Made by a program: the position numbers and the translations under genes. A stretch of DNA of 23,910 nt from positions 1 through 23,910 of the forward strand of contig JBIKLL010000038.1 in assembly GCA_044359815.1 (NCBI GenBank). Reading direction: 5' to 3'. The DNA comes from Pseudobdellovibrionaceae bacterium. GTDB taxonomy: Bacteria; Bdellovibrionota; Bdellovibrionia; Bdellovibrionales; Bdellovibrionaceae. The notes beneath the pieces were generated by a model. That model was given only the letters and a program-made list of their open reading frames with translations. It had not been told where the DNA came from and made no database searches. This document shows, in pieces, positions 567-17,524 of the stretch; the stretch's first letter is position 1, and every line of letters starts with the position of its first letter.

Positions 567-620
567 GACATATATCATGAGGGTTGAACTTGAATCGTTT
601 CTTTGATCTAAATATTGGCC

Positions 621-1382
621 ATGGCAGACGCACCTGTTTTAGAGCTTAAGAATGTTCAGATTAAATTTGGTGATGACCTGATACTGGACAACGTTAATAT
701 GAAGATTAATTCTGGCGAAAGCGTTGTTCTAATTGGTTTGAGCGGCGGTGGTAAGACCGTTTTGTTAAAAACCATAGCTGGACTGATTCCACCGGCAAAG
801 GGCACCGTCAGCTGTTACGGTCATGATTGGGAAAAGCTGTCTTCGATTGGCAAACATGATCTGGCCAGCAAGATTGGAATGCAGTTTCAAAAAGCGGCTT
901 TGTTTGACGAACTGAACACCTATGAAAATGTCGCCTATCCCCTGAGGGAACATTTAAAATTATCTGAGGAAGAAATTAAAACCAGAGTGCTTGAATGCTT
1001 AAGAGCTGTTAATCTGGAAAAAGCTCAGAACCAACAGGCTCATGAATTATCTGGTGGGATGAAACTTAGACTGGGCGTGGCCAGGGCCATTGCTGCCAGA
1101 CCCGAAATTTTGTTTATGGATGATCCCACTGCCGGATTGGATCCAATCAGTGCTGATGAAATGGCAGAGTTGATTTTAAATATTAAAAAACAAATCAATG
1201 CCACATTGATCATTGTAACCAGTGACATTATGAGAGCTTACCAGTTTGCTGGCAGGATTTTTATTGTGGCTGACAAAGCGGTTCTGGAAACAGGCACTGT
1301 CGAACAAACTAAAAACCATCCCGACCCTCGTGTGCAACAATTTCTACACGGCTGGCTTAAGGGTCCACTGACACCCTTATAA
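621..1382 (+). CDS. mlaF: ABC transporter ATP-binding protein, MlaF/Mkl/Ttg2A family (atypical Walker B and H-loop)
   Basis: Walker A GLSGGGKT, Q-loop FQKAALFD, signature LSGGMKLR, DDPTAGLDP, and C-terminal DPRVQQFL typical of MlaF. ATG at 621 preferred over TTG at 615. Confidence 0.85.
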   Translation: MADAPVLELKNVQIKFGDDLILDNVNMKINSGESVVLIGLSGGGKTVLLKTIAGLIPPAKGTVSCYGHDWEKLSSIGKHDLASKIGMQFQKAALFDELNTYENVAYPLREHLKLSEEEIKTRVLECLRAVNLEKAQNQQAHELSGGMKLRLGVARAIAARPEILFMDDPTAGLDPISADEMAELILNIKKQINATLIIVTSDIMRAYQFAGRIFIVADKAVLETGTVEQTKNHPDPRVQQFLHGWLKGPLTPL

Positions 1383-1408
1383 AAACCAAACACCGAGGTC
1401 ACGAGCCA

Positions 1409-2836
1409 ATGAGCACTGCAACTAGATCTGACTCAACAAAATATTCAAATGAAGATTCAAAATCATCGACAGAAAAACCCAGGATCAGATTTTTAGGTGC
1501 TGCCCAAACAGTGACTGGATCCAAGTATTTAATTACTTACAATCACCAACGGATACTGGTGGATTGTGGACTTTTTCAGGGCCTGAAAGAACTGAGATTA
1601 AAAAACTGGGATCGCTTTCCCGTGGATCCAAAAACAATCAGCGCCATAGTGTTGACTCATGCCCACATTGATCATTCAGGCTATATCCCCAGACTCATCA
1701 AAGAAGGCTTTACAGGAAAAGTTTACTGCGCGGATGCCACTAAGGCACTTTGTAAAATACTGCTTCCTGACACGGGATATTTGCAACAGGAAGAGGCCGA
1801 GTTTTTGAATCGCAGAAGACTGTCTAAACATAAGCCCGCACTGCCTTTGTTTTCTGAAAAAGAGGCCGAAAATTCATTGGATTTCTTTGAATCAAAAAGT
1901 TTTAGCACCCCATTTCAGATTGCAGAAGGGATTGAAGCCACTTTTTTGTACGCAGGCCATATCTTGGGCGCAGCACAGGTTGTTTTGAGACTGGGCGAAA
2001 CCACCATTGGCTTTTCGGGTGATTTAGGCAGACCCAATGATGCTATTTTGATGAATCCTGAGCCCATGAAAAAGGTTGATTATTTAGTGATGGAATCAAC
2101 CTATGGCAACCGCACCCATGAAGATTCTGATCCATCGATCGAGCTTGAAAAAATAATCAATCAGGCTGTTAAAAATAAATCAGTAGTCGTGATCCCATCC
2201 TTTGCCGTGGGCCGTGCCCAAATGCTGCTTTATTATTTGCATCAGTTAAAATCCCAAAATAAAATTCCAGATATTCCCATGTATCTGAACAGCCCCATGG
2301 CAACCAATGTTACTCAGTTACTGAAGCAATTCAGATCTCTGCACAAACTCAGCATCGAAAAATGTGATGAAATCTGCTCAACGGTGAAATACGTTAAATC
2401 GGTCGAGGAATCAAAATGGCTGAATGAACAAAAAGGCCCTATGGTTATAATCTCGGCCAGCGGCATGGCAACGGGTGGAAGGATTTTGCACCACTTGAAA
2501 GCCTTTGCTGGGGATCCCAAAAACTTTATTGTTTTAGCTGGGTTTCAGGCAGCTGGCACCCGAGGACGTTCACTGCAAGACGGCAGTCAGGAAATAAAAA
2601 TATTCAGAGAACTGATTCCAGTCAGAGCCAAAGTTGAAGTGCTGGAAAACCTGTCTGCCCATGCTGATGGCGCTGAGCTCACAGATTGGCTTAATAAGTC
2701 AAAAATAAGTCCAAAGAATATATTTGTGACCCACGGCGAATCCCAAGCCAGTCAGTTTTTGGCGCAGAAACTGCGCACCGAGCTTGGGTTCAATTGTACG
2801 GTGCCAATCCCCGATCGCGAATACGATCTGGATTGA
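1409..2836 (+). CDS. MBL-fold metallo-hydrolase, beta-CASP/RNA-specificity domain (YSH1-like ribonuclease)
   Basis: FLGAAQTVTGS, DCGLFQG, THAHIDHSG, AGHILGA, SGDLG, MESTYG, FAVGRAQ, LSAHAD, FVTHGE motifs. Confidence 0.93.
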   Translation: MSTATRSDSTKYSNEDSKSSTEKPRIRFLGAAQTVTGSKYLITYNHQRILVDCGLFQGLKELRLKNWDRFPVDPKTISAIVLTHAHIDHSGYIPRLIKEGFTGKVYCADATKALCKILLPDTGYLQQEEAEFLNRRRLSKHKPALPLFSEKEAENSLDFFESKSFSTPFQIAEGIEATFLYAGHILGAAQVVLRLGETTIGFSGDLGRPNDAILMNPEPMKKVDYLVMESTYGNRTHEDSDPSIELEKIINQAVKNKSVVVIPSFAVGRAQMLLYYLHQLKSQNKIPDIPMYLNSPMATNVTQLLKQFRSLHKLSIEKCDEICSTVKYVKSVEESKWLNEQKGPMVIISASGMATGGRILHHLKAFAGDPKNFIVLAGFQAAGTRGRSLQDGSQEIKIFRELIPVRAKVEVLENLSAHADGAELTDWLNKSKISPKNIFVTHGESQASQFLAQKLRTELGFNCTVPIPDREYDLD

Positions 2837-2871
2837 TTAATTGCTGAGTTCAGTTGTAATGTGCAGGACCT

Positions 2872-3351
2872 ATGGCTTTAGTGGCGCAACCGAAATGGTT
2901 TAAAAGATTTCTATTAAAAATTTGGAATGTCTGGCCACCCTTTCTGGGCTCTGGAATCACAGTGCATATTCTGACCCAGGATTTGCGCCAGGTGGAAGTC
3001 CGATTGAAACTCAGATTTTGGAATAAAAACTTTTTTGGCACTCAATACGGTGGCTCGTTGTTTTCAATGACCGATGCCATGTATTCGGTGATGTTGATTG
3101 AAAACTTGGGGCCTGGTTATGTGGTCTGGGATAAATCAGCAACCATCAGATATTTGAAGCCTGGCAGGACAAATGTAAAAGCAAATTTTGAAATCACTCA
3201 GTCCGACATTGATAAAATCACCAGCCAATTAAATGAAGTCGAAAAAATGGATTGGCACAAGCCTGTTCAAATTTATGATACCCATCAAAACCTGGTGGCA
3301 GAAGTTGATAAGGTTATTTACATCAGACGTAAGACAACCAAGCAAAAATAA
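2872..3351 (+). CDS. DUF4442/YiiD-C hotdog-fold thioesterase-like protein
   Basis: WPPFLGSGI, NKNFFGTQYGGSLFSMTD, VVWDKSATIRYLKPG. Confidence 0.85.
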   Translation: MALVAQPKWFKRFLLKIWNVWPPFLGSGITVHILTQDLRQVEVRLKLRFWNKNFFGTQYGGSLFSMTDAMYSVMLIENLGPGYVVWDKSATIRYLKPGRTNVKANFEITQSDIDKITSQLNEVEKMDWHKPVQIYDTHQNLVAEVDKVIYIRRKTTKQK

Positions 3352-4189
3352 TTACGCCAGCCAATAAGGCTCCCCAAAAAATTAAAGTCAGCTTTAACAC
3401 CAAAAATTTAAACGATTTTTCTGCCAGCAGGAATACCAAACCCAGTTTTGACAAAAACGCCGCAAACAGTGAAATCGCTACCAACAAACCTAACTGGGTC
3501 ACCTGCAAAACCCCCTGATTGTGAATCTGGCTGTTAGCGATCATAGAGCCATGAATTTCAAAAAGAGATACCAAAAAGGTGATCAAATAAATTCCGCTTT
3601 CACCAAAAGTGATTTGCAAAAATTTAGAGGTCATCAAAATAAAAAATATAAACCCTGTCAGTTTGATCAATCCCCAAGGGTCCAGCGTACTGGGCGGTAA
3701 AGCTTCCTGATGTTGATTTTCTTTCCGCGAAAAATAAATCAACAAAATAGCAATGGCAAACATGGGACATAAAATTACAGCAATCACTGGCAAATGAATG
3801 TGATCAGACCCAACCATAATAATCAAAATAGCCTCTGCCAACATGGCCAAGTTTGTACTGAGAAAAACCAAAACATGACTGGTGATGTTTTTTGATGTTT
3901 GGCTCTTTTTGGCCAAGGCTGCGGTGGTGGCAGTGCTGGAGACTAAACCGCCTAAAAATCCCGAGGCCACAGAGCCTGCTTTGACGCCCAGCCAAAATAT
4001 TAAAACTGACCCCAAGGTCTGCACCAAAGCCAGGGCGAAAATTAATTGTAAAACCCTTTTTGGATTGAATAAATCAAAAGAAAACAGCGTTCTATCAGGC
4101 GATACCCAAGCAAGAATCCAAAGCGCTACTACGATTACCACTGACTGCAGAAAGGGTTTGTAGTTTTGGATCAAGACTTTGTTTTTCAT
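3323..4189 (-). CDS. DUF4010 (MgtC/SapB-associated) integral membrane protein
   Basis: Multiple hydrophobic segments with FNPKRV and GFLGGLVSSTATT signature. Confidence 0.8.
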   Translation of the reverse strand: MKNKVLIQNYKPFLQSVVIVVALWILAWVSPDRTLFSFDLFNPKRVLQLIFALALVQTLGSVLIFWLGVKAGSVASGFLGGLVSSTATTAALAKKSQTSKNITSHVLVFLSTNLAMLAEAILIIMVGSDHIHLPVIAVILCPMFAIAILLIYFSRKENQHQEALPPSTLDPWGLIKLTGFIFFILMTSKFLQITFGESGIYLITFLVSLFEIHGSMIANSQIHNQGVLQVTQLGLLVAISLFAAFLSKLGLVFLLAEKSFKFLVLKLTLIFWGALLAGVIIFAWLSYV

Positions 4190-4220
4190 TAATCCCTTTT
4201 ATACAAGATTGCATTTGCAA

Positions 4221-4235
4221 CTGTCACTGTGACAG
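4221..4235. promoter_or_regulatory. Perfect palindrome, candidate transcription-factor site in a divergent intergenic region
   Basis: CTGTCAC-T-GTGACAG between divergent genes (4189 minus, 4407 plus). Confidence 0.35.
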
Positions 4236-4406
4236 CTGATTTATTTAAGCTTATTCGGGGATCTGCAAAATCCATCCGGCAATTGAATCACTTCAGATCA
4301 TTGTAAAATTCATATAAACCTACACTAATCGCTAATAATCGTTGTCCCTGGGCATTCAGCAGCTTAAAAACTGGAACTTCAAATTTTTAAATCAACAGGG
4401 GTTCCT

Positions 4407-4850
4407 ATGAAGCTATTAATCTGCGCTCTTTCACTACTTTTAACTCCATCTGTTTTTGCCAAAACCATTTTTGCATTGGGAGACATCAAAAATCCCGAAC
4501 TGATTTTTATCGACTCGATTGAAACACGAACCACAAAAGACCAAGTTATAACTGTGATCACTCATGGATCCAAAAAAATTTCTGCTATTTCGCCCATCGA
4601 ACTGAAAGCTCAAATGATTGATTTGTCTCTGCTAGAAGAAAAAGTTAATGGCAAAGTTATTTCCAGCGGAGTGCTTGCTCCGTATATGAAAGATCCCAAT
4701 CATGAATTGTCAGTTGATACAGTTATTCATTGTACAAAGGTCGTTCAAGAAATCTGCAAAGGCTTATCAGTATTTTCGATTCCCCCTACCCCGGTGGCTT
4801 CACTGACCAAAATCAAAGCCGAAACCAAAAAAGGCCTTCTGAAAAAATAG
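4407..4850 (+). CDS. Hypothetical secreted protein
   Basis: Signal peptide MKLLICALSLLLTPSVFA; 147-aa ORF; no family recognised. Confidence 0.7.
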   Translation: MKLLICALSLLLTPSVFAKTIFALGDIKNPELIFIDSIETRTTKDQVITVITHGSKKISAISPIELKAQMIDLSLLEEKVNGKVISSGVLAPYMKDPNHELSVDTVIHCTKVVQEICKGLSVFSIPPTPVASLTKIKAETKKGLLKK

Positions 4851-4918
4851 CTTTGCCTCAAAAAAATTTCGTTGTGACATTTCACTTCGGAATCGAAACT
4901 ATAAAGCCAAAATTTCTT

Positions 4919-5449
4919 TCAAGCTATTACAGTTTCGCCCCTATGGACCTTTGGTGGTATAAAAACTAACTCCCGAACATTGTCTTTTTTTACCTTTTCA
5001 TAGTTGATTACTGGAGAACCAGTCACGTATCTTGTAAGTTCAGCAATCATAAATTCTTTGCCGTCAAGAATTGCCTCGACTACTTCTTCTAATGACAAAA
5101 GGGCCAAAACTTCACCGCCGACTCCAAGTACAGGTAAATGACGAATGTTTTTTCTGGTCATTAAAGCCAAGCACTCATCCAACAAATACTCGGGAGTGAC
5201 ATAAATTACTTTTTTGGCCATAACTTCATTAATTTCAGTTGATAAAGATGACTTTCCAAAGAGCAGTATTTTTCGAGCATAGTCACGTTCAGAAAATAAC
5301 CCCAATATTTTACCTTCTTCCATTACCAAAATGGCACCCAGATTATTCACTGCCATTTTGCGAAGCGCTTTCGCTACCGAGTCTGATGGTGAAACTGAGA
5401 AGATTTTCTTTTTATTTGTCGAGATAAGTAATTCTTTTACCGTATTCAT
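4919..5449 (-). CDS. CBS-domain pair protein
   Basis: VSPSDSVAKAL, GLFSERDYARK, VTPE..LDECLALM..IRHLPV; strong RBS AAGGAGG. Confidence 0.9.
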   Translation of the reverse strand: MNTVKELLISTNKKKIFSVSPSDSVAKALRKMAVNNLGAILVMEEGKILGLFSERDYARKILLFGKSSLSTEINEVMAKKVIYVTPEYLLDECLALMTRKNIRHLPVLGVGGEVLALLSLEEVVEAILDGKEFMIAELTRYVTGSPVINYEKVKKDNVRELVFIPPKVHRGETVIA

Positions 5450-5521
5450 TTTGCCCCTCCTTGTTATTATACAAATCTTTAGTCATTTGGTTTTCGCTGA
5501 TCAGCTAATTATCAAAAAGAA

Positions 5522-5608
5522 CTAAGCAAATTTCACTTTATATAAATTTGTGAAGGCAGCTGGGAAAGGCGGCGATAAACCTGATCTGTAGAGGTTAAAA
5601 TAATTCAT
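5522..5608 (-). CDS. Possible 28-aa small ORF upstream of the CBS gene
   Basis: GAGAGGAG RBS just before ATG; MNYFNLYRSGLSPPFPAAFTNLYKVKFA*. Too short for the ORF track. Confidence 0.35.
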   Translation of the reverse strand: MNYFNLYRSGLSPPFPAAFTNLYKVKFA

Positions 5609-5776
5609 AAGCTCCTCTCAAATAAAATTTCTCTTAGTTGAAAAGCGTTTACGTTTTCTTCTTTGTGCAAATTGGGATCAATGAAAAATTTGTCAAGGCA
5701 ACGAACCGAAAAAAATAATAAAATGTTTGTGCCTTATTTACCGTGCTGGACCAAAGTCCTATGGGTCTGCTAACAG

Positions 5777-6211
5777 TCAATCTATAGGAAACGCGGAAGA
5801 TTTTAAATATATATAATGGGTTGGATAGGAGATTTCAGTGTTTTTATAAATGCAAATAATTGTGCGAGTGTCTGACTTAAGAAATGCCAATTTCATCATA
5901 TCGTATTGGTATAAATTAACTGGATAAATCACTGCCGTGGGGCGAGTAAAATGGGCAATGTATTTTGCCGCCATCACATCCCGAAGCCCATCAGCCGAAT
6001 TGTCTTTTGCCCAACGAAGTGTCGTGGGGTTTAGCGTTAAAGTTCTAACAACAAATCCAACCTTCCATGGACCTGATGCTGTATTTGGCCCCTCCCACAT
6101 TCCCTCGACAATGGCGCACTTTTCCATTGGCCTGGCAAAAACTGAAACTGAAACTGAAACTGAAAAAGAAATAAAAAAAGTTATACAAAATAATGATTTT
6201 AATTTAAGCAT
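5777..6211 (-). CDS. Hypothetical secreted protein
   Basis: Signal peptide MLKLKSLFCITFFISFSVSVSVSVFA; RBS GAGGG; no family recognised. Confidence 0.7.
   Translation of the reverse strand: MLKLKSLFCITFFISFSVSVSVSVFARPMEKCAIVEGMWEGPNTASGPWKVGFVVRTLTLNPTTLRWAKDNSADGLRDVMAAKYIAHFTRPTAVIYPVNLYQYDMMKLAFLKSDTRTIICIYKNTEISYPTHYIYLKSSAFPID
6141..6164. repeat. Hexamer tandem repeat (ACTGAA)x4
   Basis: actgaa actgaa actgaa actgaa encodes the SV repeats in the signal peptide of 5777..6211. Confidence 0.85.
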
Positions 6212-6280
6212 AAATTCCCTCTGTTTTAAACTGATGTCTGTCTAATTATTTCTTTCAGAAAGGTCAAGACAATCAACAGA

Positions 6281-6317
6281 ATAATTCGCATGGCCCTTGC
6301 TTATTTAAAAATCAGTT
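6281..6317. repeat. Isolated copy of one arm of the tRNA-trailer foldback
   Basis: ATAATTCGCATGGCCCTTGCTTATTTAAAAATCAGTT vs 8999-9035 ATAATTCCCATGGCCCTAGCTTATTTAAAAATGAGTT. Confidence 0.85.
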
Positions 6318-6327
6318 CAGTGAATCG

Positions 6328-6684
6328 CTACTTTTTAACCGTACCCTGATGAAATTCCAACTGCCATCTATCTGAATTTTTGCGCCAAACAGTACTCCTT
6401 AAAAATTCAGTTTTGATTCCAGCGACAGTGGTAATTGATATGTATGTTATCAAAACAACTTCGGGAGCCAAAGCTGTAGCTTTAAAATTTATTGATTCGA
6501 TTTTGGAGTCTCCATCCTCGGTGGGAAGCCTCTTTAATATGTCTTCTCTTGTTCAAAGACTTCCAGAAGAGCCATATTCGAAAAAGTCTGGGCTCAATAG
6601 ACCGGCGAGTTTAGCTGCGTTCGAGCGGAATTCAAAAGTATGAAGGGTTTTCTCCAGCTTAAATAAAATTTCAAATTTCTCCAT
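6328..6684 (-). pseudogene. DUF4440 (NTF2-like) pseudogene, paralog of 7966..8322 with internal stop
   Basis: Same 357-bp length as 7966..8322, about 22 substitutions by manual alignment; Trp44 TGG->TGA at 6553-6555. Confidence 0.9.
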
Positions 6685-6691
6685 AACATTC

Positions 6692-6746
6692 CCCATTTGA
6701 GGTCCATGACCAACTTTACATACAAAGTATGCACTCATAAAGTCAG
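6692..6746 (-). pseudogene. Remnant of brnT promoter/operator and first codons
   Basis: CCCATTTGAGGTCCATGA (reads MDLKWG) matches the brnT start CCCATTTGAAGTCCATGA (MDFKWD); TACATACAAAGTATGCACTCATAAAGTCAG matches 8759-8788. Confidence 0.85.
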
Positions 6747-6759
6747 TTTTGGTGCGGCC
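6747..6759 (-). repeat. tRNA-Arg 3'-end copy (att-like) no. 3
   Basis: TTTTGGTGCGGCC identical to 9106-9118. Confidence 0.75.
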
Positions 6760-6858
6760 TAATTTTAACATTAGTAGAGACCAACCGAGAAATTATTAGA
6801 GATTTTTAAAAACTTATTCTACCGTTAAGCAATTGCACGCCAATCAGCAAAAGACGAA

Positions 6859-7740
6859 TTATCTCAGAACCAAAACAGGAACTCGGCTTGCACGTAAAAT
6901 CTGCCGAGTTACGCTTCCACCCATGAGGGCTGTACCTCGACCCGATTTAGCAACGACTGCGACTAGATCAGCTCGCTGCTTGGATGCATGCTTAAGCGCA
7001 AGGGTGCTAATCATTTCAAATTTCGTTGAAATGATAAATTTGCAGATCACTTTCTGTTTGGCACATGCATCTTCTACAGATTTCTTTGTCTGGTTCAGTT
7101 TTTGGTTATAGGCTTTCTCATCGGAACTCAGATTTTTGTCAGCGATATTATAACTGAAACGTGCCGCATGAAACACAATCAGGCGTGCGCCTTTTTCTTT
7201 ACAGAACACGATGGTATCTTCGAGCGCCTTTTGCGAACCACGTTCGCCATCGTAGCAAAAAAACACACTCTTGATCCCACTTTGAAGCTTTGAATGTGGA
7301 TTCACAACAAGAAGCTTGTTTTGAGCCAGGTGCACGATGGACTCGGCAAAGCTGCCAAGAAATAATTTTTTAACAGAACTCCCGCCCTGACTATAGACAA
7401 CGCAAAGATCACAACTGTTTTGTTTTGCCATTTTTAGAAGGTACTCTGCCGCTTTAGTCGTCGATAAAGTTGGAAAATCAACAACATGCAAGCGAAGTTT
7501 TTGAGTGGGAATTCCAGCGTTCTTTAGCTTTTTCTCGAGAACTTTTTTGGGATACGAAGTGAAGCGCTCATCGATAGGAACGTCGAAAGCTAGTGTGAGG
7601 TCAGTTTCGTTACGAGTTACCACATACCCAACATGGATTTCGTCCTTGGGCTTGGCTTGCATGGCTAAAATCAACTTATATGCTCTTTGCAATTGAGTCT
7701 TGTTTTGATGAAAAGGATCTATTCCCCAAAAAATTTTCAT
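6859..7740 (-). CDS. Tandem-domain universal stress protein
   Basis: Two USP repeats: KIFWGID...LFLGSFAESIVH..KLLVV and VFFCYDG...LMGGSVTRQILRASRVPVLVLR; RBS GGAGG. Confidence 0.9.
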   Translation of the reverse strand: MKIFWGIDPFHQNKTQLQRAYKLILAMQAKPKDEIHVGYVVTRNETDLTLAFDVPIDERFTSYPKKVLEKKLKNAGIPTQKLRLHVVDFPTLSTTKAAEYLLKMAKQNSCDLCVVYSQGGSSVKKLFLGSFAESIVHLAQNKLLVVNPHSKLQSGIKSVFFCYDGERGSQKALEDTIVFCKEKGARLIVFHAARFSYNIADKNLSSDEKAYNQKLNQTKKSVEDACAKQKVICKFIISTKFEMISTLALKHASKQRADLVAVVAKSGRGTALMGGSVTRQILRASRVPVLVLR

Positions 7741-7917
7741 ACCTGTACCTCCATGAACCTAGCCGCAAAATTTCTATATTAGCTTACAGTAGAAACGATA
7801 ACCTATATTTTACGTATTTAAAATGGATAAATGTTCTACTACTTATCGTTTGAAAGTATAGTCGCAGACGACGTTTTTGAGTTAAACCTAAAAGTGTCAA
7901 AAAGTCCCGAAAAAGAA

Positions 7918-7949
7918 ATTTGGTGCGGCCGGCTTGAGGAGTTTCGAAC
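7918..7949 (-). repeat. tRNA-Arg 3'-end copy (att-like) no. 2, with displaced T-loop motif
   Basis: Minus strand GTTCGAAactcctcaagCCGGCCGCACCAAAT vs tRNA GTTCGAAtctctCCGGCCGCACCAAAA. Confidence 0.85.
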
Positions 7950-7965
7950 AAAGTACATTAAATCG

Positions 7966-8322
7966 CTACTTTTTAACGGTGCCCTGATGAAATTCCAACT
8001 GCCATCTATCTGAATTTTTGCGCCAAACAGAACTCCTTAAAAATTGAGTTTTGATTCCAGCGACAGTCGTAATTGAAATGTATGTGATCAAAACAACTTC
8101 GGGAGCCAAAGCTTTAGCTTTGAAATTTATTGATTCGATTTTGGAATCTCCATCCTCGGTGGGAAGCTTTTTTAAGATGTCTTCTCTTGTCCAAAGACTT
8201 CCAGAAGAGCCAAATTCGAAAAAGTCTGGGCTCAATAGACCGGCGATTTTAGCAGCGTTTGAGCGGACTTCAAAAGTATGCAGGCTTTTCTCCAGCTCAA
8301 ATAAAATTTCAAATTTCTCCAT
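7966..8322 (-). CDS. DUF4440 / NTF2-like family protein
   Basis: LLSPDFFEFGSSG, VVLITY, RSSVWRK...WQLEFHQGT; starts immediately after the brnA stop. Confidence 0.9.
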   Translation of the reverse strand: MEKFEILFELEKSLHTFEVRSNAAKIAGLLSPDFFEFGSSGSLWTREDILKKLPTEDGDSKIESINFKAKALAPEVVLITYISITTVAGIKTQFLRSSVWRKNSDRWQLEFHQGTVKK

Positions 8323-8547
8323 TTAAACGGACTTTTTCCATATCGTTTTTGGAGTCATTTTTTGTTCTTTACAGCTTTTTAGAAAATCGTTTACTAACGT
8401 TTGATACGGGACATGGGTTTGTTCGCTTAACTTCTTGAAATACTCGATTACATCAGCATCAAGGCGAATGGTGACACTTTTTTTAAGCTTTTCGATATAA
8501 GGATTGTCAACCAGTTTCATTTTTTTTAAGTCATACTCTTTACGCAT
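8323..8547 (-). CDS. brnA: BrnA-family antitoxin (ribbon-helix-helix)
   Basis: MRKEYDL..MK...NPY, KKSVTIRLDADVIEYFK, PYQTLVN; overlaps the brnT 3' end. Confidence 0.9.
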   Translation of the reverse strand: MRKEYDLKKMKLVDNPYIEKLKKSVTIRLDADVIEYFKKLSEQTHVPYQTLVNDFLKSCKEQKMTPKTIWKKSV

Positions 8548-8749
8548 AAATTTCTCCCTTAAATATTCTCAAAATCATGTTTTTCTGACTGTGCCCAATA
8601 AGAATATACCTATCTTCATCTTCAGAATGGTCTGGGTCATGCCCTAACTTTGCAAGTGGATCATAAAACACTGTTGCGGCCTCCTCAAAAGAGACTCTGT
8701 GCTTTTCAAGATTAGCTTTAGCCTTTTGAGAATCCCATTTGAAGTCCAT
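8540..8749 (-). CDS. brnT: BrnT-family toxin, C-terminally deleted (probably inactive)
   Basis: MDFKWD..KA.ANL.KH.VSFEEAATVFYDP....DPDHSEDEDRYILIG; only 69 aa and lacks the usual IRIISAR segment. Confidence 0.85.
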   Translation of the reverse strand: MDFKWDSQKAKANLEKHRVSFEEAATVFYDPLAKLGHDPDHSEDEDRYILIGHSQKNMILRIFKGEIYA

Positions 8750-8754
8750 GATTT

Positions 8755-8783
8755 ATTGTACATACAAAGTATGTACTCGTAAA
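8755..8783 (-). promoter_or_regulatory. Sigma70-type promoter of brnTA with palindromic operator, probably leaderless
   Basis: Minus strand TTTACG-17 bp-TACAAT, then 5 nt to ATG; perfect GTACATAC-aaa-GTATGTAC (8758-8776) covers the spacer. Confidence 0.7.
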
Positions 8784-8862
8784 GTCAGATTTTTAACTTC
8801 CGATTTTCTGACTCTATCTATATGAATTTATGGTATTTTCTAAAATCTTAAAATGTGATATT

Positions 8863-8993
8863 TGGTGCGGCCGGAGAGATGGCTTCGGGCTCCTGCCCTC
8901 AGCCTTACACTTCGTTTCAGGCCAGCTACGCTGTCCAAAAAGGCCCTCATGGCCTTTTTGCCGAACGGGGAGTTCTCATCTACTCCAACCACA
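8863..8993 (-). ncRNA. RtT-like tRNA-linked structured repeat ending in a tRNA 3'-end copy with CCA
   Basis: Minus strand: TGTGGTTGGAGTAGATG pairs with CATCTCTCCGGCCGCA(CCA); internal GATGAGAA..GTTCG and hairpins CAAAAAGGCC/GGCCTTTTTG, CAGCgtaGCTG, GGGCaggaGCCC. A 20-bp direct repeat links 8861-8880 and 9107-9126. Confidence 0.7.
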
Positions 8994-9136
8994 TCAAAAT
9001 AATTCCCATGGCCCTAGCTTATTTAAAAATGAGTTAGGAGCACAGGCTGTAATCAGCCGAGCACCTCTGTTTGAATTTTTAATTAAGCTAGGGACATGCG
9101 AATTATTTTGGTGCGGCCGGAGAGATTCGAACTCCC
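8968..9136. repeat. Long imperfect inverted repeat overlapping the tRNA 3' half
   Basis: Core arms 8989-9030 and 9075-9116 (37 of 42 Watson-Crick pairs), extendable to 8968/9136; 44-nt GC-richer loop containing GGCTG-taat-CAGCC. Confidence 0.9.
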
Positions 9137-9185
9137 GACACCCTGGTTCGAAGCCAGGTACTCTATCCAGCTGAGCTACGGCCGC
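9109..9185 (-). tRNA. tRNA-Arg (anticodon TCG)
   Basis: GCGGCCG TA GCTC agctggata GAGT A CCTGG ctTCGaa CCAGG gtgtc GGGAG ttcgaat CTCTC CGGCCGC A CCA; 77 nt with encoded CCA. Confidence 0.97.
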
Positions 9186-9248
9186 ACATTCTGTAATGAC
9201 CTGTATTGCTAAATATTTAGCCCATCGAAATTTGATCGGCAATAGCTT

Positions 9249-9884
9249 TCACATAAAAATAATCTGATTACAGATCTGATCCTTCTTTTGACCTTTAAAA
9301 GGGAACTTATCATGCAATACACCCATGCAAAGATTTATCCCCAGCTCAAGCCCTGAAGCTAACCCCTGATCACCGATTTTACTGAGCATTTGCTGCATAA
9401 TGCCCTGCCAATAGTCTTTGGGTACCAGTTTATCGATTTTATCATCAGCCAAAATAACGGCCTGTCTTTCCATCAATGACAGGTAAATTAAAACCCCGGT
9501 TTCGGAATGTGTTTTTGAATTCACTCGTCTGTGAAACTCCAGTTCCGCCATGGCATTGACAGCCATTATTTCGGCCCTATCAGAGGTCAAAAATCTTTTA
9601 ACGAAATCCAATCGATTCAATCCAAAACAAATCCCTAAACCCAAAAAATAAACTACTCCAGAAATCAATTCCTCAGAAGGCAGAAAATTTTGATGAAAGA
9701 CTCCCCAAAATCCAAAAAACACAGCAGACCAACCTAAAATTAACAAAGCAATAACATGATTTGTATGAGCCGACTGTGAAGCTACCACAACCACTAGTTC
9801 GCCTTCGGTTTGCTTTTCAGCCTTGGCAATAGTTTCTTCAAGTCTGATCACATCTTCTTTGGAAAGCAATTTACCAACCGCCAC
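9249..9884 (-). CDS. TPM-domain membrane protein (third gene of lemA operon)
   Basis: IAKAEKQTEGELVVVV, TGVLIYLSLMERQAVILAD. Start reassigned to GTG at 9884, which follows GGAGG. Confidence 0.85.
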   Translation of the reverse strand: MAVGKLLSKEDVIRLEETIAKAEKQTEGELVVVVASQSAHTNHVIALLILGWSAVFFGFWGVFHQNFLPSEELISGVVYFLGLGICFGLNRLDFVKRFLTSDRAEIMAVNAMAELEFHRRVNSKTHSETGVLIYLSLMERQAVILADDKIDKLVPKDYWQGIMQQMLSKIGDQGLASGLELGINLCMGVLHDKFPFKGQKKDQICNQIIFM

Positions 9885-10605
9885 TGGCACCTCCACCGCT
9901 GAATCCACCGCCACCACCTGACCAGCCGCCCCCACCGCCGCCAAATCCTCCACCACCAAATCCGCCACCGCCCCATCCACCGTGACGGGATCGATAACCA
10001 CTGCTGTGATAGGGGATTGCTCCACGTAAAATTCGTGACAGCAGAGACCCGAAAATAAAAAACAATAACATTATAAAGGGCATTTGATTGCCAATCCAAT
10101 TTGCCCAATTTTTGATTTCAAAATTCAAATCCTGCGGCACCAACTGCGGATCCAGTTTGTAAGCCACAGCCGAGGCTCCCATTAAAATTCCCTCAGAAAA
10201 TTGCCCTTTTTTAAAAAAAGGGATCATCTGTTCCCGGATTATTCGCGAGGCCACCACATCTGGCAGATCACCCTCAAGACCTTGACCGACTTCGATACGG
10301 ATTTTACGTTCATCACGTGCAACCAGTATCAAAACACCGTTGTCCTGTTGGGCCGTGCCCAGTTTCCATTTCTCAGCGACTTTTAGGGCTGCGGTTTCTA
10401 TTGTCTCGTTGCCAATAGTTGGAACAGTCAATATGGCCAACTGAGCCTTGCCTTGATTATACAAAGCTCCTGAAACTTTCTGAATTTCCAGTCTCTCGGG
10501 CCGGCTGATCAGCCGGGCTTCATCGTGAATGATTTCGGTCAAGTTAGGAAATTCAAACTCTTGGGCCCAACCAAAACTTAAAAATACAAACAGTAATGAC
10601 AACAT
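9871..10605 (-). CDS. TPM-domain protein (YgcG-like) with Gly-rich tail
   Basis: WKLG...DNGVLILVA..ERKIRIEVGQGLEGDLPD; C-terminal GGGGFSGGGASGGW. Confidence 0.93.
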   Translation of the reverse strand: MLSLLFVFLSFGWAQEFEFPNLTEIIHDEARLISRPERLEIQKVSGALYNQGKAQLAILTVPTIGNETIETAALKVAEKWKLGTAQQDNGVLILVARDERKIRIEVGQGLEGDLPDVVASRIIREQMIPFFKKGQFSEGILMGASAVAYKLDPQLVPQDLNFEIKNWANWIGNQMPFIMLLFFIFGSLLSRILRGAIPYHSSGYRSRHGGWGGGGFGGGGFGGGGGGWSGGGGGFSGGGASGGW

Positions 10606-11186
10606 TAAAATTTAACTTCTGGAGTTTTCTCGGCCGCAGCTTTTTCGGAAGCTTCTAAATCCCATTGAGGCATTTTTTCGTGATGATAAAAAAGTGCATT
10701 AGTCCAGCTGGTCACAGGAACAGTCACCAGATTATTAAATTCTTTTATCGACTCAATAAAACGTTGTCTGGCCACCGTGATGCGATTTTCGGTGCCTTCC
10801 AATTGGGCCTGTAAATCCCTAAAATTAGCATCCGCTTTTAAATTTGGATAGTTTTCGGTGATCGCCAGTAATTTACCCAGAGCCGCGGAAAGAGCGCCTT
10901 GGGCCCTTTGAAACTCAACCAACTGTTGAGCTGATACTTTTGAAGGATCAATCGTCATTTGAGTGGCCTTAGAACGAGCTTCAGTCACGCCTTGCAATGT
11001 ATCTTTTTCGTGTTTTGCATACCCTTTTACCACGTTAACTAGATTTGGAATCAAATCAGCTCGGCGCTTGTATTGATTAGTCACTTCTGCCAAAGAAGCC
11101 TCAGTATTGTTTTTTGCTTTTGGGATTGATTGCAACCCGCAAGAACTCAGTAACACAAATGCAGAAAGATAAAACATCTTTTTCAT
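10605..11186 (-). CDS. lemA: LemA family lipoprotein
   Basis: Lipobox LLSSC, YKRRADLIPNLV, ENYPNLKA, LEGTENRITVAR; RBS AGGAG. Confidence 0.95.
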   Translation of the reverse strand: MKKMFYLSAFVLLSSCGLQSIPKAKNNTEASLAEVTNQYKRRADLIPNLVNVVKGYAKHEKDTLQGVTEARSKATQMTIDPSKVSAQQLVEFQRAQGALSAALGKLLAITENYPNLKADANFRDLQAQLEGTENRITVARQRFIESIKEFNNLVTVPVTSWTNALFYHHEKMPQWDLEASEKAAAEKTPEVKF

Positions 11187-11249
11187 ATAGACTCCTTTTT
11201 TCTAGAGCGCTAAAAGTAACAAACAAATGATTTTAGGAAAACCAAAAAA

Positions 11250-12752
11250 ATGCATGTGATCATAGGCGACGTAGTCTTTGCCGATAAGCCCAGCGGTGTT
11301 ACAACTCACCAATCAAATGCGCATTTATTAGGATATGTCGAATACCTGCAATCCCATTTAGGCACCAGTCTGCACGTAGTGCACAGGCTGGATAGGGAAA
11401 CTACAGGTGCAATTTGTTTTGCCAAATCAAAAAACACAGCTGCTGAATTGTTTGAATTCTTCAATCAAAGAAAAATTAAAAAAACTTATTTGTTTTTGAC
11501 GGCTCAAAAATCCGAAAAAGATGAATTTACTTGTTCAATACCCATTGATGAAAAGCCCAGCGAAACAGTTTTTAAACGGATCAAAAGAAACGCCTTTTGT
11601 GAAATGTGGCAGGCCGAACCACTGACCGGCAGACCCCATCAAATCAGAAAACACGCTCAAGCCTCTGGAATTTCCATCTTAGGTGATCAAACCTATCAGG
11701 GAAAACCTTTTCCGCATTTGTGTTTGCATTCTGCCAGCCTAGAAATCCCCGGGTATCCCAAATGGATCTGCCCAGAACCTCTGTTTTTTAAGCGCATGGG
11801 CCTGGCCATGAACGAACCCGTTGTCAAATTGCTTTCCAGTGCGGATCGCCGACAAAGGCTGTTTGATTTTTTAAAAAATCGTGATGATTGCTTTAGGCTG
11901 TTTCACTTTGAAAACCAAATGGATCTGGCCATCGATAAATTGGGGCCCCAATTATTTATCCTGGAAAATGAAAATCTATCAGATGAATCTTATAAATCAG
12001 AATTTTTGATGGAAGCTTTTTGTGATGCTTTAAACACCCCGAAGATTATCCGTAACCGGGTGGACAGGGGCAGTGCTAATATACTGGGATCAGCTTCTGC
12101 AGGTCAGGATCAGCAATCGCAAACCTGGATGGCTTTTGAAAATTCAAGCCAGTACCATTTTAAATCTGACAGCGGCATGTCAGCAGGATTATTTTTGGAT
12201 CAAAGATTGAATCGCCTGAAGGTCCGAAACCTCGCAGAAGGAAAATCTGTGCTAAATCTATTTGCCTACACCTGCGGCTTCAGTTTGGCGGCCGCACTAG
12301 GCAAGGCCTCAAAAGTCGTCTCGGTTGACACCAGTCAAAACTATCTGGATTGGGGTCAAGAAAACTTTAAGCTGAATCAGTGCCAAGGTGATTTTCAATT
12401 TATCAAGCAAGACTCCATGCTTTATTTAAAGGGCGCTCGAAAACACAAATCACAATTTGATCTGATTATCATCGACCCACCGTCGTTTTCACGAGGCAAC
12501 AAAAACACAAAACCCTTTAAAATTGATAAGGACCTGCCCGAACTGATTCAAAATGCACTGGCCTGCCTGAAACCCAAAGGTCAGATTTTAGTGTGCACTA
12601 ATTTTGAAAAATGGAGTCCTGAAATATTTGAAAAAAAGATTTTAAAATCCATACCTGCAAAGATAAAAATCCAAAGCCTGTCTGGTGACTGGGATTTTGA
12701 ACTACCCGGCACCGAACCCCGCATGAAATCTGCAATACTCAGCCTAATATAA
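11250..12752 (+). CDS. Fusion of RluA-family pseudouridine synthase and RlmI/RlmK-like SAM methyltransferase
   Basis: N-terminal DKPSG, HRLDRETTG, TGRPHQIRKH, ILGDQTY; C-terminal GLFLDQR, VLNLFAYTCGFS, IIIDPPSF. Confidence 0.9.
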   Translation: MHVIIGDVVFADKPSGVTTHQSNAHLLGYVEYLQSHLGTSLHVVHRLDRETTGAICFAKSKNTAAELFEFFNQRKIKKTYLFLTAQKSEKDEFTCSIPIDEKPSETVFKRIKRNAFCEMWQAEPLTGRPHQIRKHAQASGISILGDQTYQGKPFPHLCLHSASLEIPGYPKWICPEPLFFKRMGLAMNEPVVKLLSSADRRQRLFDFLKNRDDCFRLFHFENQMDLAIDKLGPQLFILENENLSDESYKSEFLMEAFCDALNTPKIIRNRVDRGSANILGSASAGQDQQSQTWMAFENSSQYHFKSDSGMSAGLFLDQRLNRLKVRNLAEGKSVLNLFAYTCGFSLAAALGKASKVVSVDTSQNYLDWGQENFKLNQCQGDFQFIKQDSMLYLKGARKHKSQFDLIIIDPPSFSRGNKNTKPFKIDKDLPELIQNALACLKPKGQILVCTNFEKWSPEIFEKKILKSIPAKIKIQSLSGDWDFELPGTEPRMKSAILSLI

Positions 12753-13092
12753 CTGCGTTAAAAGTACTTAACTTTCATTCCGTATAGCCGGCCCAGAACT
12801 GCAATTTTACTAGATTCATTTGGCTGCCATTAATGTGTTTCTGAATTTGAATTTTAAAAAATCTAAATATTTGATTTTATTTTAAAAGACCCTCTGCGGA
12901 GCCTGGACGGCGGGGGCTTGGCCCGAGCAGAGAAGCAGGAGCTGTGGTCTTTTTAAATAAAAATATTTAGATTTTTTAAAATTCAAATTCAGAAACACAA
13001 TTGAGATAGCTAAATAAATTCAAAAATCCAAATTAAAATATCAGTTCTGGGTCGGCCAATACAGATGGAATTTGTGTTTTTTTAACGCAGTT
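12751..13092. repeat. ~340-bp foldback (long inverted repeat) filling a convergent intergenic region
   Basis: 39-bp perfect arms 12834-12872/12961-12999; further paired blocks 12877-12891/12946-12960, 12787-12801/13042-13056, 12751-12763/13080-13092; GC-rich 54-nt loop. Confidence 0.93.
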
Positions 13093-14131
13093 CTTTGGCC
13101 ATCTTGACGGCTTGGTATGCATCCACCACTCCACCGCAGCTAAATTTGTCGGCTAGTGCTGAAACCTTGCGGCAGCTATCAATCAAAATCTGCTTTACCT
13201 GTTCTGCCTTCAACGAAGGATTTGCAGATCGAATCAGGCCAGCAACTGCGGCTACCATCGGCGCAGAAAAAGAAGTCCCATTAGCATGATACCATTTCCC
13301 ATCAATCCAAGGTCCTATGATATTGAACCCAGGAGCTCCCACGTGAACAAATTTGGGACTGAAGTTTGAAATGGTTGACCAATTGTCCTTGGGCGTAGAC
13401 CCACCCACTGTGATCATATTAGGTTCATTAAAATTTGCAGGCCACAATGGATTTTTATCTGAATTTTCACCATCATTACCTGCTGAAACCACAACCAAAA
13501 TATCTTTGGTCCCAGCATATCTGATGGCATTTCGAATCAATAAAGACTTTTCGTCAGAGGCAAAAGAATAATTAATAATTTTAGCACCGTGATCAGCAGC
13601 ATATTTAAAAGCGCTGACGGCGTCTTCGGTGTCGCCAAACCCTTCGGAATTAGAAAACCTAAGAGGCATAATTTTACAAGCAGGACAAATGCCGACACTG
13701 CCATGGCCGTTGTCAGGTTGAGCCGCTATGATGCCCGCGATAAAAGTTCCATGTCCGTTATCATCATAGGGCAAAAACATTTCGTCTTCCCAATTCCAGC
13801 CAATGATATCATCGATAAAACCGTTTTTATCGTTGTCTTCCTTATCCCTTTGGATCTCTGATGGGTTCCACCAAATCGCATCGTAAATATCCGGATCATT
13901 ATAAACCACACCGCTGTCTATGATGGCTATCACAGTGGAAGCCTCACCCTTGGTGATTGTCCAAGCTTGCTCTACATTCAGATTTTTAAGATGCCAAGAT
14001 TTTGGTAAAAAGGGATCCCCGGATTTTCCACTGTCCTGGGGCTTAGCGGGATAAGGAACCTTTCCCTTGTAAGCCCATAGGCTGGTTGATATCAAGCACA
14101 CCCAACAGAAAATAAATAATTTTTTTACCAT
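13082..14131 (-). CDS. Secreted S8 (subtilisin-family) serine protease
   Basis: Signal peptide; catalytic motifs IAIIDSG, HGTFIAG, SAGN, GTSFSAP; Ca-binding-type DNDKNGFIDDIIGWN. Confidence 0.95.
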   Translation of the reverse strand: MVKKLFIFCWVCLISTSLWAYKGKVPYPAKPQDSGKSGDPFLPKSWHLKNLNVEQAWTITKGEASTVIAIIDSGVVYNDPDIYDAIWWNPSEIQRDKEDNDKNGFIDDIIGWNWEDEMFLPYDDNGHGTFIAGIIAAQPDNGHGSVGICPACKIMPLRFSNSEGFGDTEDAVSAFKYAADHGAKIINYSFASDEKSLLIRNAIRYAGTKDILVVVSAGNDGENSDKNPLWPANFNEPNMITVGGSTPKDNWSTISNFSPKFVHVGAPGFNIIGPWIDGKWYHANGTSFSAPMVAAVAGLIRSANPSLKAEQVKQILIDSCRKVSALADKFSCGGVVDAYQAVKMAKELR

Positions 14132-14162
14132 AAGACAATCGGACTATTTGTCCAATAAACTG

Positions 14163-16829: not shown

Positions 16830-16967
16830 AATTTTACCCTTCCCCTACAAAAACAAGAACCCAAATATAATAGCGGCGGTTTCATTAAATCACTGTGGTT
16901 TTAACGCTTTGAAAAGAATTTCCAACAAAAAATTTAAATTTTTGATTTATTAAAAATTATTATCGCC

Positions 16968-17459
16968 CTAATAAAGTTTTGAGGGCATTTCTGAATAAGA
17001 CCCTGGCCTGTAATTGATTTTACGGGCTTTCAGCAAATCCTGATGGCTTTTTTGCGACCAACAGCAATAAGGATAAATCGCAATGCCACCGCGCGGAGTG
17101 AACTCCCCGATGACCTCAATAAATTTGGGCTTCATTAATTTAACCAAGTCATCACAGATTTTTTGCATGCAGTCCTCGTGAAAATCGCCATGATTTCGAA
17201 AGCTGAACAAATAAAGTTTCAACGATTTGCTTTCCACCATTTTTTTATCAGCGATGTAATTGATGTAAACCCTGGCAAAATCCGGCTGGCCAGTTTTAGG
17301 ACATAAGGAAGTAAACTCCATGCAAAGCAAACTGGTCCAAGCTTCAGAATCTGGGTTTTTATTATCAAAGGCCTCCAACACCGAGGGATCATAGGTGGTG
17401 GGTATGGCTGATGGTTTTCCCAATCTAAAATTCTTAAGTTCTGATTTTTTTCGGCTCAT
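16968..17459 (-). CDS. queF: NADPH-dependent preQ0 reductase (preQ1 synthase), unimodular type
   Basis: [43 protein letters not shown]; start taken at MSRKK. Confidence 0.96.
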
Positions 17460-17524
17460 AACGGTTTCCACCAATAAAGGATTTATGATGGCATTTTTTT
17501 GCACGGTTTACGCAAAAGCTCAAG

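Follow-up and report, generated by a model that had tools for sequence, protein, structure and literature searches.

A stack of short units, separated by direct copies of a tRNA 3' end, lies downstream of tRNA-Arg(TCG) in contig JBIKLL010000038.1 (positions 1-23,910; the whole stretch of 23,910 nt analysed here is called the window) of assembly GCA_044359815.1, Pseudobdellovibrionaceae bacterium. The assembly, designated G000, represents an uncultured lake Bdellovibrio-like bacterium and comprises 2,949,856 bases in 125 contigs, with a completeness of 91%. The stack was probably built by serial site-specific insertion of non-autonomous cassettes at the tRNA-Arg(TCG) 3' end by a recombinase acting in trans.

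Copies of the tRNA-Arg(TCG) 3' end

The tRNA gene and the copies of its end, which are referred to as cores (O) with flanking arms P and P', are as follows.

9109-9185, minus strand: tRNA-Arg(TCG), sole tRNA gene of the window (ARAGORN; Rfam RF00005, 67.2 bits)
9107-9126, plus strand: anchoring attachment site, the last 20 nt of tRNA-Arg(TCG) plus AA
8861-8880, plus strand: core O2, 20 bp identical to the tRNA end, at which the 246-bp insert finishes and the brnTA unit begins
7918-7959, plus strand: canonical site, composed of core O3 (7919-7932) and the P arm CTTGAGGAGTTTCGAAC (7933-7949), 7 nt past the DUF4440 stop
6747-6759, plus strand: core O4, 13 nt shared with the tRNA end and no conserved arm on either side, at which nhmmer detects no site

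Read on the plus strand, the 3' end of tRNA-Arg(TCG) is TTTTGGTGCGGCCGGAGAGAT. The 20-mer TTTGGTGCGGCCGGAGAGAT is present exactly at both 9107-9126 and 8861-8880, 246 bp apart, and two shorter copies follow in the same orientation, one sharing 14 nt with the tRNA locus (7919-7932) and one sharing 13 nt (6747-6759). The spacings between successive copies are 246, 942, and 1171-1172 bp. The 10-mer TGGTGCGGCC has four exact matches in the window, all on the plus strand and one of them at the tRNA 3' end. Together with one-mismatch matches the number rises to nine, against a mean of 0.74 in shuffled sequence, and none of 100 shuffles reached nine. The whole assembly contains exactly four copies of TGGTGCGGCC, all at this locus, within 2.4 kb and co-oriented. 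As all four genome-wide occurrences are located here in one orientation, the core repeats are not due to chance.

A preliminary description of the window, made from its sequence alone, had reported direct repeats of the tRNA end at 8861-8880, 7918-7932, and 6747-6759. These repeats are real and, with the tRNA end itself, account for every genome-wide occurrence of TGGTGCGGCC. The same description noted that they shorten with distance from the tRNA. This shortening is not a simple age gradient, because the three downstream copies belong to different things: the first is the end of the 246-bp element, the second is part of a canonical ~43-bp site, and the third is a bare core. The comparisons below support the repeats as recombination joints at the tRNA 3' end. 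On the other side of the tRNA, the right flank tRNA-TPM-TPM-LemA is kept at all five tRNA-Arg(TCG) loci fetched from relatives of other genera.

A site conserved across the family

The canonical site was followed through a family set of 182 genomes in 41 genera, Bdellovibrionaceae-like to judge from their record titles, which includes G000. Its P arm, the 17-mer CTTGAGGAGTTTCGAAC, is found with at most one mismatch in 35 of the 182 genomes and 20 of the 41 genera; the reversed 17-mer, used as a control, has eight matches in seven genomes (as read from the table). The mismatch-free 17-mer occurs in the window's genome only at 7933-7949. A TGGTGC-type core accompanies the 17-mer at 21 of the 32 places read, and these 21 were used to build a site profile. 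The window's canonical site at 7918-7959 scores 41.4 bits (nhmmer, E 2.8e-11). Across GTDB, with one genome per species, the exact 17-mer has 75 places, which is about chance level for 596 Gb. A full site (at least 30 bits) is present at 38 of the 75, most of them labelled Bdellovibrio, Bdellovibrionales, Pseudobdellovibrionaceae, Bdellovibrionota, or Bacteriovoracaceae; a few metagenome-assembled genomes are labelled otherwise.

In the direction of the tRNA, the site consensus is CA(C/A)GCAGTTCGAAACTCCTCAAG-YYGRSYGCACCA; it consists of an arm similar to a T-loop and, next to it, a core with a likeness to tRNA ends that finish in GCACCA. Its conservation is one of sequence, positions 13-29 being invariant or nearly so among the 21 aligned sites. 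For the same 21 sites, RNAalifold gave no consensus fold, its predicted structure being empty. A further arm, P', extends the site from about 43 bp to up to about 75 bp. The combined P' and core motif, AAAATGAGACAW followed by TTGGYGC, recurs in the family. The P' arm, which ends in AAAATGAGACA(A/T), recurs beyond the core, and its clear matches with zero or one mismatch lie at tRNA ends or at sites on the same contig; with two mismatches allowed, the reversed control is noisy as well.

Units ending in the core in other genera

The context of the site was recorded for 30 full sites in 22 loci. A co-oriented open reading frame (ORF) stops at most 30 nt before the site in 17 of the 30 and at most 300 nt before it in 22, and the other eight have no co-oriented ORF of at least 70 aa ending within 300 nt upstream. 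Within the stretch examined, 11 sites have a co-oriented upstream tRNA (Arg-TCG, Arg-ACG, Leu-TAA, or Leu-CAG) 0.7-16 kb away. Every site has the same direction in eight of the nine loci with multiple sites. The cargo beside the sites consists mostly of toxin-antitoxin pairs (RelE/HTH, ParE/DUF6290, BrnTA, MazF, Gp49/HTH, and PIN/RHH). Other cargo includes DUF3224, a MepB-like protein, a ThsB-type TIR protein, a Bpu10I endonuclease, and a type III restriction pair. Since most of the cargo falls into toxin-antitoxin pairs, restriction enzymes, and stress proteins, a role of the arrays in phage defence and stress tolerance is probable.

We then compared the units between loci. The brnTA unit is 70-83% identical among the window and the relatives G018 and G119, and the homology to G119 and G018 ends at 8874 and 8872, respectively, inside O2. 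The unit thus ends in the core at three different tRNAs, namely Arg-TCG in the window, Arg-ACG in G018, and Leu-TAA in G119. In G018, a brnT-brnA-FMN-reductase unit downstream of tRNA-Arg(ACG) is flanked by two direct copies of TTGG(T/C)GCA(G/C)CCAACTTGAGGAGTTTCGAACTGCGTGCTT; the interval that separates tRNA-Arg(ACG) from a TetR-like gene in that locus contains a run of N (L025 11897-11995). An all-against-all comparison revealed a parDE-like unit of about 610 bp in five genomes of five genera, with 73-84% identity. In G015, G187, G102, and G117 the homology breaks off 7-12 nt into a detected site or, for G015, within the tRNA-Arg(TCG) 3' end; in G095 it reaches as far as the P' and core motif, where no site was detected. 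A MepB unit is shared by G015, G101, and G102, with 93% identity between G015 and G102, and in G101 it fills the exact interval between two sites. G117 and G156 share a mazEF unit at 87% identity; it has a site at either end in G117, and in G156 it is bounded by tRNA-Leu(CAG) and a site. The 'class-a' flank beyond the canonical site aligns, together with the site, at 82-85% over 61 nt (blastn), and G018 and G005 agree at 90% over 133 nt. The small units that recur in up to five genera measure 0.6-0.8 kb. Cassette identities between genera reach 87-93%, compared with 65-71% for the neighbouring LemA and TPM genes; that the cassettes are more alike than the core genes indicates horizontal movement. 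Viewed as a whole, the comparisons describe units whose cores recombine with tRNA ends and with the sites of other units. A site-bounded unit need not be small, since a porin gene and the kdpABC-kdpDE operon occupy 9.5 kb (8658-18231) between two canonical sites downstream of tRNA-Arg(TCG) in G111 (L071, C3:58000-77900).

Units of the window

Between O2 and the end of the stack, the window contains the following features, listed from the tRNA outward.

8750-8860, minus strand: P' arm and brnT upstream region, about 110 bp, with the palindrome GTACATAC-AAA-GTATGTAC at about 8758-8776
8540-8749, minus strand: brnT', truncated BrnT ribonuclease toxin gene, 69 aa; matches positions 1-55 of 77 only of the Pfam PF04365 profile
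8323-8547, minus strand: brnA, intact antitoxin gene, 74 aa; Pfam PF14384, E 5e-11
7966-8322, minus strand: DUF4440 gene, 118 aa; Pfam PF14534; its start abuts the brnA stop
7889-7917, plus strand: 'class-a' flank on the far side of the canonical site, common to sites in G018, G005, and G097
6859-7740, minus strand: tandem universal-stress-protein (USP) gene, 293 aa; Pfam PF00582 in two stretches
6318-6746, minus strand: decayed second unit, in which the operator region and first brnT codons (6692-6746) are joined to a DUF4440 pseudogene (6328-6684)
6274-6317, plus strand: orphan inverted trailer arm, matching 8992-9035 at 89% and 87% complementary to 9075-9113

The interval sizes and gene contents given in the preliminary description, brnT'-brnA-DUF4440 in one interval and USP in the next, agree with the spacings of 942 and 1171-1172 bp and with the Pfam matches. 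The proximal brnTA-DUF4440 unit is the only one in the window that clearly belongs to the family-wide class of cassettes. Over 56 nt, its P' arm region matches the tRNA-Arg(TCG) trailer of G015 at 81%, and the palindrome in front of brnT is likely an operator/promoter. The toxin-antitoxin pair is not full length in both partners: BrnA is complete, with a nucleotide identity of brnA to G018 and G119 of 81-83%, and BrnT lacks about 30 C-terminal residues, a conserved block that is present in four relatives in the protein alignment. The USP unit has the conserved far-side flank without the P arm. A USP homologue at E<=1e-30 is found in one of 40 relatives searched, which marks the gene as patchy accessory cargo.

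Beyond the USP unit, core O4 is fused straight onto the operator region that precedes brnT in the distal unit; in the proximal unit the corresponding distance is 71-72 nt greater. The DUF4440 pseudogene (6328-6684) has an in-frame stop at codon 44, and alignment with 7900-8900 reveals that brnA and most of brnT are deleted. The two DUF4440 copies are 94% identical over 300 nt (6314-6613 versus 7952-8251). The distal DUF4440 unit is thus derived from the proximal one by deletion and has decayed; it may have arisen from an older integration or from local duplication. The preliminary description had a second DUF4440 cassette end at a fragment of the tRNA-trailer hairpin, and the 94% identity and the trailer-arm copy at 6274-6317 bear this out. 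The trailer arm is probably a relic of an older tRNA-trailing element.

A non-coding element behind tRNA genes

The unit that adjoins the tRNA has no cargo gene.

8881-9106, minus strand: non-coding insert, 226 bp (246 with one repeat), composed of the trailer, a 48-nt inverted copy, and module Q
8881-8978, minus strand: module Q, three hairpins abutting the 20-bp repeat

This unit had been called a 246-bp structured repeat. It is not itself a repeat, being a unique insert flanked by the 20-bp repeat, and it has an inner 48-nt inverted repeat of the trailer and tRNA end (8983-9030 and 9075-9122, 85% complementary). The flank lying beyond O2 in the window is joined directly to the tRNA in G015. 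This indicates that the 246-bp element was inserted last, duplicating 20 nt, and agrees with the earlier proposal that the newest unit is the one next to the tRNA.

Elements of this kind are common in G000. At 12 of its 33 tRNA genes, 14-27 nt of the gene's 3' end are repeated in direct orientation 120-330 nt downstream, and about one such case is expected by chance according to our estimate. At tRNA-Ala, the repeat appears to take in the trailer as well, for a length of about 60 nt. Each tRNA is separated from its copy by an inverted copy of tRNA end plus trailer, which makes a long hairpin, and by conserved hairpin modules. The carriers are the window (8861-9106) and contigs C25, C27, C30, C33, C55, C59, C76, C84, C107, C111, and C122 (loci L110-L120). 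The tRNA-Asn gene on C4 (L121) is followed by a giant hairpin only, with arms of about 60 nt. An alignment of six copies of module Q yields 18 predicted pairs, seven of which have a compensatory change, and the module takes the position that the T-loop would have in the copied piece of the tRNA. The hairpin modules are nearly confined to tRNA trailers. No Rfam family except tRNA reached the gathering score in the window stretch or in 12 tRNA trailers, and module Q was not found in the 181 other family genomes at E<=1e-6. A wobble-pair bias in the inverted tRNA-end copies was considered; the 17 G-U versus 9 A-C pairs, counted on a crude ungapped alignment, are not significant and were not used. 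To our knowledge, no transposition or integration mechanism readily explains direct and inverted local copies of a tRNA end around hairpins.

The preliminary description had raised the possibility of similar stacks at other tRNAs, and one exists in G000 at tRNA-Met(CAT) on contig C111 (L119, 400-1690). There, a 13-mer from the tRNA end is present in three exact copies, which delimit a 174-bp non-coding element and a 0.89-kb unit with a Gp49-like/HI1420-HTH toxin-antitoxin pair; the cargo is on the strand opposite to the tRNA. The elements trailing 12 of the 33 tRNAs are perhaps of interest in their own right.

Search for a recombinase and for movement

No recombinase is encoded by the 16 ORFs that were scanned in 615-12752 of the window, as the preliminary description had maintained. 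The window's genome has only two genes matching PF00589, located on contigs C96 and C26 and of 300 and 319 aa, for which the XerC and XerD models are best, below their cut-offs. Resolvases or other serine recombinases were found in none of G000, G018, and G101, nor was a reverse transcriptase found in G000. Other site-bearing genomes have 7-15 PF00589 matches each. The preliminary description had named recombinases beside the same core elsewhere as a check: within 4.5 kb of the sites in 20 loci, none of 231 ORFs scanned (of 239 chosen) matches PF00589, nor does any of 35 ORFs of at least 180 aa scanned (of 58 chosen) on site-bearing metagenome contigs. Conversely, none of 20 loci with a full-length integrase (G196, G187, G111, and G018) carries the site, and no autonomous element with the same attachment site was found among them. 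In viral contigs the 17-mer has four places, none with a full site. The family homologues of the Xer-like recombinase on C26 are only 31-38% identical, so that no pattern of presence and absence can be read from them. A pattern search of the assembly for a dif-like site gave nothing usable. Xer-dependent modules (IMEX and pdif modules) have sites that resemble the host dif site with its XerC and XerD arms, and those of pdif modules alternate in orientation; the sites here are direct.

A 356-aa integrase 345 nt from a site (L244/L262) was considered as the cognate enzyme, but no tie to the site emerged; it belongs to its own tRNA-Leu(GAG) and has the opposite orientation. Compared with the orthologous loci of G180 and G001, its homology extends as far as the integrase stop codon, and no repeat of the tRNA-Leu(GAG) end lies within 40 kb in G001. 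The tRNA-Leu(GAG) gene and the 356-aa tyrosine integrase 125 nt behind it are found together in three unrelated contexts with 75-89% protein identity (L244 21-1299; L263 1292-2565; L264), the homology beginning about 146 nt before the tRNA and ending at the integrase stop. The pair looks like one travelling module.

Parts of the stretch are contained in 24 lake-water metagenome runs, from samples of 2020 and 2024. Contigs from X3, X4, X6, and X7 compared over 3000-12000 have the window arrangement only. X3 and X4 are not marked as source runs, and contig pieces from them span O2, O3, and O4 without a single difference. An X3 contig of depth 2 joins 5725 to 11462 via 30 unrelated letters; it could be a relative without the tRNA region or a chimera, and is not interpretable. 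The array in the window's genome is probably idle, given its truncated toxin, its pseudogene cargo, its distal core without arms, and a recombinase complement of two Xer-like genes only.

Proposed order of insertion and alternative explanations

If cassettes were inserted serially, 6270-9185 would be an integration hotspot in which each new unit enters beside the tRNA and pushes the older ones outward. The brnT-brnA-DUF4440 unit that is now decayed (6318-6759) would have arrived first and the USP unit (6760-7918) second. The brnT'-brnA-DUF4440 unit (7919-8860) would have been third, retaining a full site at its far end, and the 246-bp non-coding element fourth. In the tRNA direction, a unit would be laid out as core O (about 12 nt, ...GCACCA-like), P' arm, cargo, P arm, and core O. 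Insertion would proceed by recombination of the core of a free unit, possibly a circular intermediate, with the core in the tRNA or in a resident site; a cross-over inside the core would exchange the flanks exactly there. As the units do not encode a recombinase, the enzyme would have to act in trans.

Several observations weigh against serial insertion. The cognate recombinase was not identified in any search of genomes, metagenome contigs, and viral contigs. The tRNA-Arg(TCG) array of G111 contains a broken PF00589 fragment with two stops (about 5788-5964 of the locus), and in G101 a 311-aa Xer-like recombinase, 31% identical to the 319-aa gene of G000, is located 5.8 kb from two sites; together they make integrase-bearing ancestors possible. 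Neither an excised circle, nor an empty site, nor an alternative or unit-skipping joint was found in the contigs of four lake metagenomes, in which rare forms would be missed; the preliminary description had named circular junctions as a check. The gene behind brnA varies (DUF4440 in the window, FMN_red in G018, and others elsewhere), and the break falls at the brnA stop, where there is no site (window 8323, L025 10698, and L079 3975). Hence, not all exchange occurs via sites, and a second, site-independent route exists. Only one of the three downstream repeats of the window carries a conserved arm, and the USP interval and the core at 6747 could stem from local rearrangement. The relatives available for comparison at this locus all belong to other genera.

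One alternative is that the intervals are remnants of larger, integrase-bearing tRNA islands, and that the small units never moved as such. Erosion of islands is the classical outcome at tRNA hotspots, the G111 array holds the integrase fragment, and the units of the window are visibly decaying. Between about 3200 and 9000 the GC content stays low, at 0.35-0.41; most sections on either side have about 0.41-0.47. Older acquired island DNA may therefore continue leftward to about 3.3 kb, without recognisable joints. Against erosion, units of 0.6-0.8 kb recur in up to five genera in different arrays with the homology ending in the core each time, a pattern that independent erosion would not yield. 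The sites abut stop codons of diverse genes in 17 of 30 cases, no integrase lies within 4.5 kb in the 20 loci, and none of the 20 integrase loci carries the site. We regard erosion as unlikely. The free-standing brnTA unit, which ends in the core at three tRNAs, favours cassettes mobilised in trans, one of the two readings in the preliminary description, over the ends of one large island, which that description had named as a refuting outcome. For the distal part (6270-6760) taken alone, local duplication or unequal crossing-over between cores, followed by deletions, is a possible if somewhat doubtful origin. The two units are co-linear, with 94% identity over 300 nt. The distal one is a product of deletion that lacks both arms, and its core, fused to the operator region, is nearer to it by 71-72 nt than the core of the proximal unit. 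However, the 6% divergence and the orphan trailer arm in place of a P arm fit an older independent copy equally well, and a simple tandem duplication leaves the USP unit in between unexplained.

The tRNA-like ends could also act at the RNA level, as signals for 3' processing or stability of the cargo mRNAs, in keeping with sites that are co-oriented and just past stop codons and with the compensatory changes in the module Q hairpins. This role is highly improbable: the 21 sites have no consensus fold, eight of the 30 lack a co-oriented ORF end within 300 nt, and the exchange of flanks on both sides exactly at the core is a signature of events in DNA. An integron cassette array that has lost its integrase, a cluster of attC sites lacking integron integrases (CALIN), would share the co-oriented small cassettes, the sites at 3' ends, the toxin-antitoxin cargo, and the recombinase-free array. 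Yet an integron integrase (TIGR02249, over cut-off) is present in one of the 182 family genomes, G116, which has no 17-mer site, and not in G000. Moreover, the site is conserved in sequence, measures about 43 nt, and has no predicted hairpin (by RNAalifold; no dedicated attC model was run), and the arrays begin at tRNA genes. The chance that the array is a CALIN is thus close to nil; by the same integrase count and the want of an attC-like consensus fold, it is not an integron.

Serial insertion of cassettes can be extended to a broader hypothesis, which as a whole we consider speculative and rather unlikely. Bdellovibrionaceae-like bacteria would have an integron-like gene capture that is built differently, with tRNA 3' ends as reception site. 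A P-O-P' sequence of about 75 bp would mark cassettes of one to three genes, and the recombinase would lie neither in nor beside the arrays. It could be a host Xer-like enzyme, a candidate because the window's genome has no other tyrosine or serine recombinase. A second, non-coding element family of 150-340 bp has also come to trail a third of the tRNA genes in the window's lineage, every copy recreating the local tRNA end in direct and in inverted form around conserved hairpins.

Relation to known systems

Variable islands anchored at tRNA genes are a main route of gene gain in many bacteria, and the movement of their integrase-less pieces is poorly understood. Tandem accretion is known from the cis-mobilizable elements (CIMEs) of the ICESt1/ICESt3 group, which are integrase-less units with attachment-site-derived repeats, presumed to be moved by a recombinase in trans. 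The stack described here resembles them in its direct repeats derived from an attachment site, its stacking beside the primary site, and its presumed trans-acting recombinase. In contrast to CIMEs, its units are 0.25-1.2 kb long with one to three genes, a site of about 43 bp is shared across 20 genera, several tRNA species serve as anchor, and no related autonomous element with the same site was found here. Composites of the staphylococcal cassette chromosome (SCC) and pseudo-SCC elements occur at the 3' end of rlmH in staphylococci and enterococci, use ccr serine recombinases, and extend over tens of kb. There too, direct repeats of a housekeeping-gene 3' end separate stacked elements, some of them recombinase-free; unlike here, the stacks form at a protein gene, and both the enzymes and the size of the elements are different. 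Integron arrays and CALINs are built on an attI anchor, the integrase IntI, and attC palindromes that are conserved in structure rather than sequence. They have in common with the present arrays one anchoring site, co-oriented small cassettes with the site after the gene, an abundance of toxin-antitoxin pairs, and the lack of a cassette-borne recombinase. They differ in that IntI is present in one of 182 genomes here, the site is not attC-like, and the anchor is a tRNA 3' end instead of attI. The tycheposon islands of Prochlorococcus are tRNA-anchored, with partial tRNAs and degraded elements scattered in them, and carry tyrosine recombinases and replication modules (bioRxiv 10.1101/2020.12.28.424599). 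No such element with the present site was found, the window has no recombinase, and the integrases of its genome are the two Xer-like genes only.

The underlying kind, a gene-capture hotspot at a tRNA end, is therefore already known, and the window has an unusually small form of it. What sets it apart is the combination of very small units, a short sequence-conserved site over 20 genera, several tRNA species, and no linked recombinase. A search of the Bdellovibrio literature on genomic islands, tRNAs, and integrases found no title describing such sites. With near-minimal cassettes and a short definable site that can be traced between genera and tRNAs, the question of how integrase-less pieces move becomes directly testable. 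To judge from record titles, the host lineage belongs to a group of predatory bacteria, whose mobile elements are little studied.

Neighbouring sequence

To the left of the stack, between 3200 and 6270, the window encodes a DUF4010 protein, a CBS-pair protein, and two unknown proteins of 147 and 144 aa. Counterparts of these four genes are missing beside tRNA-Arg(TCG) in five relatives. A tandem run of AAACTG with about five units is located at 6136-6165, just upstream of the ORF for the unknown 144-aa protein (5777-6211).

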